DNA of 64,000 nucleotides from a phage. Below, piece after piece: positions 50,875 to 55,613 of this stretch. The stretch is from sequence record PZ452595.1. One strand, given 5' to 3'. Both the position numbers and the translations under genes were made by a program. A model generated the notes under the pieces. It saw only the letters and a list, made by a program, of their open reading frames with translations, did no database searches and was not told where the DNA came from. Every line of letters starts with the position of its first letter. Positions within the stretch are counted from its first letter, which is position 1.

Positions 50875-51178
50875 TTTCTTCTCGGTCAAATCGGTGTTTA
50901 CAATGACGACATTTATAACGAAGATTATTAGTCTGCCAATGGACCAATTGCACCTGTTCAGTTCCACACTCAGGGCAATTAGGAACGTTTTTAGAAGCTC
51001 TTTCACGTCGTTCAACCATAGCCATAATAGCATCCCATGCTGGAGGTTTAAAATCTAAATCGTCGCAGCCGTGAATCTTTCCACGCATTTCCATATCATC
51101 TTCCTCACCAGCCATAATAATTTTAATTAGACTGGAATTACTTGAAGCTGCAATATCTTCTAATAAACGCTTTTTCAT
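50861..51178 (-). CDS. zinc-ribbon protein (105 aa)
   Basis: ORF track; CPECG...CRHCKH. Confidence 0.55.
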
Positions 51179-52098
51179 TTCAGTACCTCAATAGCATCAC
51201 GTAAACCATTTGCTTTGGCTGTTAAAGCCTTAAGAACTTTAGTATGCTCTTCAATCTGTTTTTCAACTTCAATCAAACGAGCACTGAGATATTCGCGTTC
51301 TTCTTTCATAGTATCATTCCCATGATTGGGCTTTGGTGTAGGTTTAAATTTACTAGGGTCCTTTAACTTAATAACAATTTTAGTTTCAAACAGTGAAAGA
51401 CCATAATTCGTATTATCATCAAAGGATTCAACTACGTCCATTTTAGACAATAACGTACGAAGATTATAAGTCAAAGAACGAATCGTTTTATTATGTTTAT
51501 TAGCTTCGCATGGTTTCATATATGGAAGATTTTTATATATTTCATGTGGAGCACAAACAATAATTGACAATTCAACTGGTCCATTCTGCGATGGAATGAA
51601 TTTAGCCGTAACCCAATCTTTTACATTTACATTAATAGTACGGTCATCGCCATGACAAAACAGTCTACGAGAATGCTTAAAAAGCATATTCACATTATTA
51701 TTAAATTCGTGTGAAAACTCACTAGCAAATTTTTCTTTACTATTTTTAGAAAACCATTCTTCTAAATAAGTTCTTTTCACGTCATTAATAATATTAAATG
51801 TAACAACATTAGCATTTGATACATTAGTCTCAATGTAGCTTGGATACATAAATTTTTTAACATTATTAACAGCTATCACAGAAGATAGTAATCGGGAACG
51901 TTTGAACCACTCGAGCAAAGAACCAAGAGAATGTGAATACGCATTTTGTGTATCTTTACAAATATGATTTTCCCATCCAATATAGTCTAAAAAATCACGA
52001 AGAATATTATTGATTACTGCTCTGTGTCCTATCTGATAATTACGATGTTTAGTAATAAGACTGTCAAAATAATCAATATAATGTTTACGAGTTTTCAT
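51175..52098 (-). CDS. hypothetical protein, paralogue family member 1 (307 aa, C-terminal coiled coil)
   Basis: Shares FKHSRRLFCHGDD core and heptad-like C-terminal tail with three neighbours. Confidence 0.6.
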   Translation of the reverse strand: MKTRKHYIDYFDSLITKHRNYQIGHRAVINNILRDFLDYIGWENHICKDTQNAYSHSLGSLLEWFKRSRLLSSVIAVNNVKKFMYPSYIETNVSNANVVTFNIINDVKRTYLEEWFSKNSKEKFASEFSHEFNNNVNMLFKHSRRLFCHGDDRTINVNVKDWVTAKFIPSQNGPVELSIIVCAPHEIYKNLPYMKPCEANKHNKTIRSLTYNLRTLLSKMDVVESFDDNTNYGLSLFETKIVIKLKDPSKFKPTPKPNHGNDTMKEEREYLSARLIEVEKQIEEHTKVLKALTAKANGLRDAIEVLK

Positions 52099-52152
52099 GT
52101 TCTTCTCACTTGGTTAATGATTTATACTCCGAGCCATCCTTGGCTTTAAATT

Positions 52153-53154
52153 TTACTTAATTAACTGTAAAGCTTGTTCAAGACGATCAAGACGATTAAC
52201 AGATTCTTCCCAAATCCTTTTAGCCTGCTCATATTCTTTCTGCGCTTTATTAGAAATTTCTAGAACTTCTTTATAAGCTTTTTCTAATGCAATAACTTCT
52301 GGACGAATTTCTATCGGTTCAGGTGAATCGTCAAGACATTCCATTAGTTCCTCAAGGGTAGTTTCTTCTTTAGGAGTATTCACAATTTCATCACATTTTT
52401 GCTGGTAAATTTCTTTATCAGTCAGTGAGTACGCACACTTTACTTCACGAAGACTAACTACAATTTTATATCCTTCCCAGCCGCATATATTCTTAAAAGG
52501 ATATGTATGAATATTTTCTACTGTTTCCATACAAAGTAATGCGGTCTCTAATTGACGAGTTATAGTGCTAGCAATTGAGAAAAATTTATTAATATTCTTT
52601 TGGTTAGTTTCTGGTGTAAAAAATCTGTAATTAATAAAAATAGCTACTTTGTTTTTATCAAGCTCATATTCTTCTGCTATAATCATATCATCAGCTAATG
52701 GATGAATTTGACGATAATCGCCATAACATAATTTAGAAGCTGATTTTAGAATTTGCTTCGTAAAACTCCTAAATTCACTAACCCAACGACGAGTAAAAAT
52801 ATTCTCAGGGTCTTCTTTATTATTAAGATGATAAGAATTAACATCACCGAACCAATTATATCCTACTACATCTTTGGTTCGTTTAATTTCTTTCCCAAAT
52901 TTACTAAGAATATCTTGATTAACTAAATATGAAAGAAGACGAGACCCTTTAAAGGTTTCCTTAATATCATCTTTATCTGCACGACTAGAAATTTTATGAA
53001 CTTCATGAATAAATTTGCTGGAAGAAACAATACTTGCATCAGTATTATTGAGCCATTGATTGATAATGGAAATAACGCTATTCTGACTAGACATAGGTTT
53101 AACTTTATCATCAATAACGCTATTGAATGATTTGATATATTCGTTACGAGTCAT
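52153..53154 (-). CDS. hypothetical protein, paralogue family member 2 (~333 aa)
   Basis: ATG with GGAG SD (track start 53190 reads through promoter); FTKQILKSASKLCYGD core; coiled-coil tail. Confidence 0.6.
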   Translation of the reverse strand: MTRNEYIKSFNSVIDDKVKPMSSQNSVISIINQWLNNTDASIVSSSKFIHEVHKISSRADKDDIKETFKGSRLLSYLVNQDILSKFGKEIKRTKDVVGYNWFGDVNSYHLNNKEDPENIFTRRWVSEFRSFTKQILKSASKLCYGDYRQIHPLADDMIIAEEYELDKNKVAIFINYRFFTPETNQKNINKFFSIASTITRQLETALLCMETVENIHTYPFKNICGWEGYKIVVSLREVKCAYSLTDKEIYQQKCDEIVNTPKEETTLEELMECLDDSPEPIEIRPEVIALEKAYKEVLEISNKAQKEYEQAKRIWEESVNRLDRLEQALQLIK

Positions 53155-53188
53155 AATAATAATAATCTCCTCAGTAGAAAGTAAGAAC

Positions 53189-53218
53189 ATTATACCACAT
53201 CCTTGTGGTAAAGTAAAC
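53189..53218 (-). promoter_or_regulatory. T4-type early promoter upstream of paralogue 2
   Basis: GTTTACT - 17 nt - TATAAT; identical to 8962-8993. Confidence 0.6.
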
Positions 53219-54246
53219 TAGTTTAGTGCATTTAGTGCATTGTTCAGTTTAGAACGTTGCTTCGTGAGATTTTTGACTTTTTCTTGAGCTTTTTCTAGCA
53301 TCTTTTCAGCTTCTAACACTTCATTGGTTGCTTTAACGAGTTCATCATCTACAGCCTTAAGAGACTTCTCAATCGCGTCAGCGTGCCATTTTTCAACAGG
53401 TTTAAGACTCGGATTTTCAATAGGAAGAAAATTCACTTTATTGAATTTCCATGCATCCTTATTACCTGAACTATACATCCAAAATTTAGGATCGTTTGAT
53501 GAGTAATTGGATAAATTTAAATTTAAGTTATCTTGCACTTCTTGCTTTTTCTCTTGCGTGACTTCGTCTTTTCTCAAAAAATCGTATTTAAATGAAACGA
53601 TCATATCAAGTTCATATGTTGTTGTGTCTAATTTAAATCGTTCGAAATGCTGTGAAATCTTAGACTGAACAGCGGCAACAACATCCATATACTTAAATGC
53701 TTCTGTCAGCTGTGATTTAAGGCATTCGCAAATTGAAAGAGAATTTTTTGTATTAGGTTTAAAGCTAATTCGTGCAGTTCTATTATTTTCTTTTAACGGT
53801 CTTACTTCCATCTGAAGAGTATAACCATCAAATTTCAGGTTCTTTAAGTTAATATCAGAACCTTTTAATCGACTAGCCGTCGACAAAATTTGCTTTAATT
53901 GTTTACGGAATAGAGCAATAAATCTCCATTCAATACGATAATGATTTGGATTAAAAAATCCAGATGATAAATCAACCTTACTCTGACCAACACCTTGAAC
54001 AAATAGAGGATTTTTATAATCAATAGTTTTACAGAAATCAGTGAGCTGCTCACGAGCAGTCATTTGAGTAATATACCCAGCTTCATTAAAATTACGCACC
54101 CATTCACTGCTGTTCAGATGTTTAAAGGCGTGAATGGAACAATTAACTTTACCAAGGTCTAAATTATTTTCGCACAAAAATGTCATAGCATCACGAGTAT
54201 AGCTGGCATTACGAACCATATCTTCAATTTGAGAACGAGTTTTCAT
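53218..54246 (-). CDS. hypothetical protein, paralogue family member 3 (342 aa)
   Basis: FRKQLKQILSTASRLKGSD core; coiled-coil tail. Confidence 0.6.
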   Translation of the reverse strand: MKTRSQIEDMVRNASYTRDAMTFLCENNLDLGKVNCSIHAFKHLNSSEWVRNFNEAGYITQMTAREQLTDFCKTIDYKNPLFVQGVGQSKVDLSSGFFNPNHYRIEWRFIALFRKQLKQILSTASRLKGSDINLKNLKFDGYTLQMEVRPLKENNRTARISFKPNTKNSLSICECLKSQLTEAFKYMDVVAAVQSKISQHFERFKLDTTTYELDMIVSFKYDFLRKDEVTQEKKQEVQDNLNLNLSNYSSNDPKFWMYSSGNKDAWKFNKVNFLPIENPSLKPVEKWHADAIEKSLKAVDDELVKATNEVLEAEKMLEKAQEKVKNLTKQRSKLNNALNALN

Positions 54247-54254
54247 AGTGTTCC

Positions 54255-55157
54255 TTAAGATTTAAGTAAATCAACAATTTTAATTAATTTTTCACGCTCA
54301 GATTTAGCTTTACTACTCAATCCAGATAGTCTGAAAATTTCATCGTCATATTGTTGAATAGAAATATTCAGCTCTTCAATTTGCTTATTAAAATAATCAA
54401 TTTGTTCAGAATGTTTTTCGTTACTACGAACTGGTACAGGTTTTGTAGGCAATTTAGTTGAACTGGATTCATCCGGGCGATAAATTAAAATACAACTTGA
54501 ACCAATAGGGCATTTAGCACCAGATGAATATTCTAACGTTCCAGCTTCTTTTAAAACTTCAAAAGCTAAACAGAGATGATGCCCCATATTAACATAATCT
54601 GTAGAGCGAGCTCTGATATAATAATCATCGCCGCGAATACTAAATTTAAAGCATTTAAGGTCTTCTGTATTATTGGTCTTAAAAATCATTTGTTTATCTA
54701 GACCTTTAGCTAATCGAGCGCCTAATGCTAATAATCGTCGTTGATTTTCCCACAAATCTGCGATCATTTGGTCAAATGATAATTTCGGCATTAGTCGACC
54801 ATAAAGGTCATATCCTTTATTATAATTGCGAAGGATTTCACTCGCATTAATACGAGACAACGCTCCAATTTTATTAAGGGCTTTCATGATGCGATTAGAT
54901 AAACCCATTCCAGACCCGTTTGTTCGTTGTAAATGTTTATCTAATCCAAACCCAATATCAACTTTAAATTTATCTAAAATTTCAGCATGAACATCTCTGT
55001 CAATAACATTCAAATCCAAAGTTGGGTTAAATCTATGAAAAAATTTATCTGGCTCTCCACGACGAAGTACAGTCCATTCATTTAATTTTTTATTAACTAA
55101 AGATTTAATTACTGTATTGACATTATTAATTACTACTGACATATTTTTCTCACTCAA
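54255..55157 (-). CDS. hypothetical protein, paralogue family member 4 (300 aa)
   Basis: NQRRLLALGARLAKGLD core; coiled-coil tail. Confidence 0.6.
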   Translation of the reverse strand: MSEKNMSVVINNVNTVIKSLVNKKLNEWTVLRRGEPDKFFHRFNPTLDLNVIDRDVHAEILDKFKVDIGFGLDKHLQRTNGSGMGLSNRIMKALNKIGALSRINASEILRNYNKGYDLYGRLMPKLSFDQMIADLWENQRRLLALGARLAKGLDKQMIFKTNNTEDLKCFKFSIRGDDYYIRARSTDYVNMGHHLCLAFEVLKEAGTLEYSSGAKCPIGSSCILIYRPDESSSTKLPTKPVPVRSNEKHSEQIDYFNKQIEELNISIQQYDDEIFRLSGLSSKAKSEREKLIKIVDLLKS

Positions 55158-55558
55158 TTTTCAATTTTACTAAATACACAGAATATGATGGAAAAGACTA
55201 TATAAGCACCGCATACAGATTGAACTAATACCATTCCAAAGAACCAAACAATATTATCAAACCATGTCTGTTTTACGTCGAAAGGACGTAAACTTACAGT
55301 AATATTATCGCCTTTTTCTATTGATGAATACATCTCTGGTGAAATATATTCGCTAAATCTATAACCGTCTTTGAGTTCATATACGGCAATAAACGATAAA
55401 CTAGACCCCTTTCCTTGAGTTCCTGTAAAGGTATTAACTACAGTAACATCATAATCTTTATAATGCATATAATCATTAATTGCGTAATAACCATATGCAA
55501 CTACTACACATAAACAACATATCAATAAATTCAATCTTTTAATTATCAACTGTTTCAT
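55154..55558 (-). CDS. membrane protein (134 aa, two TM segments)
   Basis: ORF track; first gene of the operon containing the four paralogues. Confidence 0.55.
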   Translation of the reverse strand: MKQLIIKRLNLLICCLCVVVAYGYYAINDYMHYKDYDVTVVNTFTGTQGKGSSLSFIAVYELKDGYRFSEYISPEMYSSIEKGDNITVSLRPFDVKQTWFDNIVWFFGMVLVQSVCGAYIVFSIIFCVFSKIEN

Positions 55559-55613
55559 AATAATCTCAATTAAAAGAGCTTAGAACCATTATACCATCCT
55601 TGGTATAAAGCGG

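Follow-up and report, generated by a model that had tools for sequence, protein, structure and literature searches.

Profile comparisons unite nrdC.3–nrdC.6 of a T4-like phage in one tandem family whose member nrdC.5 counteracts Dsr1 in T4

The window, the whole stretch of 64,000 nucleotides analysed here (sequence record PZ452595.1), belongs to a T4-like Tequatrovirus. An earlier note on this DNA had described four tandem paralogues led by a gene for a membrane protein, and all five open reading frames (ORFs) were found at the positions it gave, on the minus strand (Table 1). The four putative paralogues are the orthologues of T4 nrdC.3, nrdC.4, nrdC.5 and nrdC.6. The order of nrdC.3–nrdC.7 is the same as in T4T, and the amino-acid identity of the five ORFs to T4T ranges from 90 to 98%.

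Table 1. Genes and sequence elements of the nrdC.3–nrdC.7 region, in window coordinates.
Feature	Position	Strand	Description
nrdC.3 orthologue	51175..52098	(-)	307 aa; phrog_1435 E 2.6e-101; 96.1% identical to T4T NrdC.3
Third intergenic hairpin, nrdC.4/nrdC.3 gap	52131..52146	(-)	AGGA loop like the other two hairpins
nrdC.4 orthologue	52153..53154	(-)	333 aa; phrog_1435 E 5.9e-165; 90.4% identical to T4T
Sigma-70-like promoter, nrdC.5/nrdC.4 gap	53189..53217	(-)	TTTACT, 17 nt, TATAAT, extended TG; consensus match only
nrdC.5 orthologue	53218..54246	(-)	342 aa; Pfam DUF7235 (PF23882); 92.9% identical to T4T NrdC.5
nrdC.6 orthologue	54255..55142	(-)	295 aa from ATG; phrog_2257 E 8.7e-153
nrdC.7 orthologue	55154..55558	(-)	134 aa, two-TM membrane protein; phrog_2547
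MotA-box-like element upstream of nrdC.7	55588..55611	(-)	GCTTTA, 12-nt spacer, TATAAT; sequence reading

The TTG start at 55157 given earlier for nrdC.6 (300 aa) is probably wrong; T4 and its closest relatives use the ATG at 55142 (MSVVIN...). With this ATG there is an 11-nt gap after the nrdC.7 stop, instead of the 4-nt overlap obtained with the TTG, and translational coupling of nrdC.7 and nrdC.6, which the note had asserted, is plausible. Also the longer ORF of nrdC.4, reaching 53190, is probably not the one used. A GAGGAG Shine-Dalgarno sequence precedes the ATG at 53154, and a transcript would not include the ATG at 53190, since the promoter-like -10 (53189–53194) is located at that ATG or downstream of it. 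The promoter-like sites within the array are candidates for promoters of early or middle type. The sigma-70-like site overlaps a hairpin at 53193–53210 and the MotA-box-like element another at 55590–55607; the latter element resembles the T4 middle-promoter consensus and may serve nrdC.7, nrdC.6 and nrdC.5 as a middle promoter. The hairpin core CCAAGGATGG was not enriched across the window (3 matches against 1.3 expected, with 14 of 100 shuffles reaching 3).

Pfam and PHROGs divide the four proteins into three unlinked families. NrdC.5 matched PF23882 over residues 1–342 (E 1.1e-121, 406.4 bits against a cut-off of 30). NrdC.3 and NrdC.4 had full-length matches to phrog_1435, with PF26897 precomputed on the nrdC.4 homologues, and NrdC.6 had a full-length match to phrog_2257, with PF26899 precomputed on all its homologues. 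Pfam searches with 36 members at E values up to 10 returned DUF7235, generic coiled-coil families and sub-threshold matches taken as noise. NCBIfam and PADLOC gave no match above chance, searching the PDB by sequence, with one single sequence and two profiles as queries, produced noise only, and no literature on DUF7235, PF26897 or PF26899 was found. Searched against the representative library, nrdC.3 matched one cluster and fragments. A 1210-aa protein matched by nrdC.3 at nine short stretches was rejected as repetitive or low-complexity sequence.

Pairwise BLASTP was too weak to settle five of the six pairs. The only significant pair was nrdC.3 and nrdC.4 (E 3e-5, 25% identity across 259 aa), and the match between nrdC.4 and nrdC.5 was marginal (E 0.005) and confined to the motif. 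HHalign comparison of family profiles placed the core motif that the note had seen in all four ORFs beyond chance. The nrdC.3 and nrdC.4 profiles were linked with Prob 97.9 and E 6e-13, and those of nrdC.4 and nrdC.5 with Prob 77 and E 2e-5 over 233 collinear columns. In the first runs, with the collected families alone, nrdC.6 remained unlinked (E 0.003–0.08). Its link emerged only once Mosigvirus, Moonvirus and Klebsiella-phage members had joined the nrdC.3/4/5 superfamily profile: against this enlarged profile the nrdC.6 family gave Prob 93.6 and E 2.1e-7, with the alignment falling exactly on the motif region, and a single Mosigvirus nrdC.6 sequence gave E 1.3e-4 over 185 collinear columns. 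The link spans 84–185 columns and not the full length. As negative controls, 15 unrelated ORFs taken from the same loci and each about 300 aa long had E values of 0.07–0.75.

All the member families are in this way joined by significant collinear profile-profile similarity, and nrdC.3–nrdC.6 are, as judged from these comparisons, one protein family expanded by tandem duplication. The paralogue nearest to nrdC.4 is nrdC.3, which is also the most variable member; nrdC.6 is the most diverged paralogue and at the same time the most conserved among relatives. That nrdC.6 is instead non-homologous, its motif and tail likeness being convergent or due to chance and the array consisting of three paralogues and an unrelated gene, would agree with its separate family in both Pfam and PHROGs and with the non-significant BLASTP pairs and first HHalign runs. 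This is improbable in view of the enlarged-profile match, the single-sequence match set against the controls, and the predicted structures, in which nrdC.6 has the same order of secondary-structure elements as nrdC.5 and shares three database matches with it. In their current state, the Pfam and PHROG families split these proteins too finely.

In the AlphaFold models of nrdC.5 and nrdC.6 a helical N-terminal region is followed by two motif-bearing helices and a β-β-α-β-β domain, after which a disordered linker leads to a long C-terminal helix. The AF2 pLDDT was moderate (72 for nrdC.5 and 77 for nrdC.6), and the nrdC.5 model was built from a merged nrdC.5/4/3 alignment and is therefore biased towards the shared fold. 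In Foldseek both models matched the BFVD entries A0A2Z4QAR2, A0A345AUV5 and A0A0A0PZG4 over the full length (E <1e-3), all three being uncharacterised proteins of T4-like phages. Flexible links between the domains kept the TM-scores low (0.3–0.5). Judging by the alignments, the same architecture is likely to be present in nrdC.3 and nrdC.4, and the linker appears to vary in length among the paralogues, ahead of a predicted C-terminal helix that is amphipathic, heptad-periodic and 45–55 residues long.

The description of the tails as heptad-rich held for all four proteins. The 3.5-residue hydrophobic periodicity of the last 45 residues exceeded that of shuffled sequences (p ~0.01 for nrdC.3 and p <=0.0005 for nrdC.4, nrdC.5 and nrdC.6); this test was used instead of a whole-protein heptad scan, whose best window was the central helix in nrdC.3 and nrdC.4. 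The tails contain 36–40% charged residues and at most one Pro or Gly, and they are long helices in the AF2 models (286–341 in nrdC.5; 245–271 and 276–294 in nrdC.6). A similar L-x-x-A-[LI]-x-x-L-K helix closes each of them. Kyte-Doolittle analysis found no hydrophobic (TM) segment in nrdC.3–nrdC.6, and all four are predicted to be soluble.

The evolutionary rates divide the array. In five genomes dN/dS was 0.18–0.28 for nrdC.3, nrdC.4 and nrdC.5, with nrdC.3 the highest at 0.28, and 0.01–0.07 for nrdC, nrdC.6, nrdC.8, nrdC.10 and nrdC.11. The rapid evolution assumed in the earlier note was thus found in nrdC.3–5, which evolve at 3–6 times the rate of their neighbours, but not in nrdC.6 (dN/dS 0.07; 97–99% identical within the genus). 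All the values are far below 1 and do not support positive selection. The conservation of nrdC.6, similar to that of its housekeeping neighbours, would be easier to explain by a fixed target than by an arms race. Within Tequatrovirus nrdC.3 has two allele classes (>90% and ~61% identical), and a third class (~56%) probably belongs to Mosigvirus; these deep classes adjoin an nrdC gene that is 99–100% identical. Most of the variability lies in the N-terminal region and the linker, and the membership of NrdC.5 in the family points out conserved and variable parts for mutagenesis.

The copy number varies from one to four across the T4-like genera. At least three copies are retained together in four Tevenvirinae genera, and nrdC.3 and nrdC.4 replace each other between genera. 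A single detectable copy near nrdC was present in Moonvirus CF1, Klebsiella phage Roth34 and Acinetobacter phage AB-Navy71. A 262–272-aa gene beside the single copy in Moonvirus CF1 and Klebsiella phage Roth34 was unrelated (E ~0.5). HHalign likewise showed no relationship for the other ORFs, about 300–390 aa long, that lie near nrdC in KP15, HK6, GEC-3S and AB-Navy71. Members of the family were seen solely in genomes of T4-like phages or in contigs of phage size. Natural variants for specificity mapping are provided by the nrdC.3 allele classes and by the arrays of one to four copies across Straboviridae.

Dsr1 is a SIR2 NADase with a TPR sensor and represents a widespread NAD-depleting type of defence. 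The statement that no member has a known function is outdated for nrdC.5, the T4 gene having been published as counteracting this sirtuin defence (PMC9391042), and the guess of a host-interaction function agrees with that role. In that study, T4 nrdC.5 supplied in trans by over-expression from a plasmid allowed a deletion mutant to plate again on E. coli with dsr1. It is described there as an early gene, and T4 remains viable on MG1655 after loss of a region that includes it (Srikant, Guegler and Laub, eLife 2022, PMC9391042). Dsr1 senses the phage major capsid protein (PMC12803255). In the literature found, T4 NrdC.5 was the sole reported protein antagonist of Dsr1; the main text of the EVADES anti-defence preprint did not mention nrdC. 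The window gene is the orthologue of the T4 gene and lies between nrdC.6 and nrdC.4 as in T4T, and its 93%-identical product can be expected to counteract Dsr1 as that of T4 does. Neither the three tandem paralogues nor the domain architecture are mentioned in the available part of the T4 paper (PMC9391042).

The nrdC.3–6 array is a genuine family that has expanded from an anti-defence gene known in part. Rather likely, the diverged genes encode cytoplasmic counter-defence proteins, nrdC.5 acting against Dsr1 and the other copies against other targets. The products would be made ahead of the late infection phase, and the nrdC.5 copy would neutralise host Dsr1, whose TPR sensor is triggered by the major capsid protein. 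The likeliest mode would be stoichiometric binding of Dsr1 by NrdC.5 as a coiled-coil oligomer, with the coiled coil presumably driving oligomerisation; direct binding is a guess, because the available part of the T4 report gives no mechanism (PMC9391042). NrdC.3, NrdC.4 and NrdC.6 are presumed to be anti-defence proteins as well; their targets in different hosts would be either further defence proteins or other variant sensors of the class to which that of Dsr1 belongs. As their paralogue nrdC.5 disarms Dsr1 in T4, they are good anti-immunity candidates, and the four-member family nominates the T4 genes in the same way.

The proposed logic resembles that of DSAD1, a protein of SPbeta-group phages that binds the sirtuin defence DSR2 and inhibits it: in both cases a phage protein would neutralise a SIR2 NADase that senses a phage structural protein. 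No sequence or fold similarity was found between DSAD1 and the nrdC.3–6 proteins. To our knowledge, the dmd–tifA–adfA and IPI/IPII/IPIII clusters of T-even phages consist mostly of unrelated genes side by side, and the nrdC.3–6 array differs from them in being one family expanded in tandem. These anti-defence loci, the first known as the 'anti-TA island', are likewise clusters of accessory genes that are non-essential, determine host range and differ from one close relative to the next (PMC9391042). The gain is incremental: the ORFs have long been annotated in T4, and diversified anti-defence genes in plastic T-even regions are already an established idea.

A different function for the same proteins would follow if the four formed one hetero-oligomer through their similar coiled-coil tails and did one job, for example against Dsr1, and not four. 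The heptad helix common to all the tails, the co-oriented and closely spaced genes and the retention of at least three copies together in four genera would suit such a complex. It is nevertheless unlikely, given the genomes with a single copy near nrdC, the interchange of nrdC.3 and nrdC.4 between genera, and evolutionary rates that are very different for tightly co-assembled partners. Furthermore, nrdC.5 alone restored plating in trans, although the available part of the report does not state which paralogues the deletion mutant retained (PMC9391042).

Somewhat less probable still is that the central domain is a soluble copy of a tail-terminator-type fold and the paralogues early decoys, a 'decoy library' for sensors of structural proteins. 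Each copy would be matched to its own sensor, for instance a TPR sensor of Dsr1, Avs7 or other Avs families, and would occupy it without triggering it; productive sensor assembly would be blocked by the N-terminal region and the coiled coil. Lambda gpU, SPP1 gp17-like proteins, T5 p142 and DUF3168 have 5–12% sequence identity to the nrdC proteins, without a profile match, and any resemblance would be one of fold only: in contrast to tail terminator and completion proteins, the nrdC proteins have extra N-terminal and coiled-coil parts and are encoded by early, dispensable, non-virion genes. The idea of NrdC.5 as a mimic of the Dsr1 trigger is weakened, the trigger being the major capsid protein and not a tail protein.

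The note had also suggested an exclusion function, and its two-TM protein was recovered, with hydrophobic segments at approximately residues 3–29 and 102–133 of NrdC.7 (Kyte-Doolittle). NrdC.7 is an upstream neighbour and not a paralogue of nrdC.3–6. It leads the array here, but it is not a constant partner across genera: Mosigvirus, Dhakavirus and Gaprivervirus arrays lack it, and the last two carry a 71-aa two-TM protein elsewhere in the array. A shared membrane-associated role of the array and NrdC.7, such as superinfection exclusion or envelope remodelling, would make sense of these two-TM proteins and of the position of nrdC.7 only 11 nt from nrdC.6. It is considered improbable; the 71-aa protein and NrdC.7 are unlike in size and array position, Mosigvirus has no membrane protein at the nrdC.7 position, and the one tested member, T4 NrdC.5, acts against a cytoplasmic NADase (PMC9391042). 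The four paralogues have no hydrophobic segment, and exclusion is unsupported.

A morphogenetic role tied to the tail-terminator-like central domain, for instance as a neck or tail assembly factor, would account for the weak tail-terminator-type Foldseek matches in BFVD, but it is very improbable: the array lies among early genes and distant from the tail module, no tail-family Pfam match appeared among the 36 members at E values up to 10, and T4 nrdC.5 is described as early and lies within a deletion tolerated on MG1655 (PMC9391042). That nrdC.3–6 encode thioredoxin-like redox proteins, as the product name 'thioredoxin' on nrdC.3–.7 in many GenBank records implies, is almost certainly wrong, with no thioredoxin or glutaredoxin match in Pfam or NCBIfam and a modelled AF2 fold that differs from the thioredoxin fold. 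The label looks like a propagation from the gene names nrdC.N.

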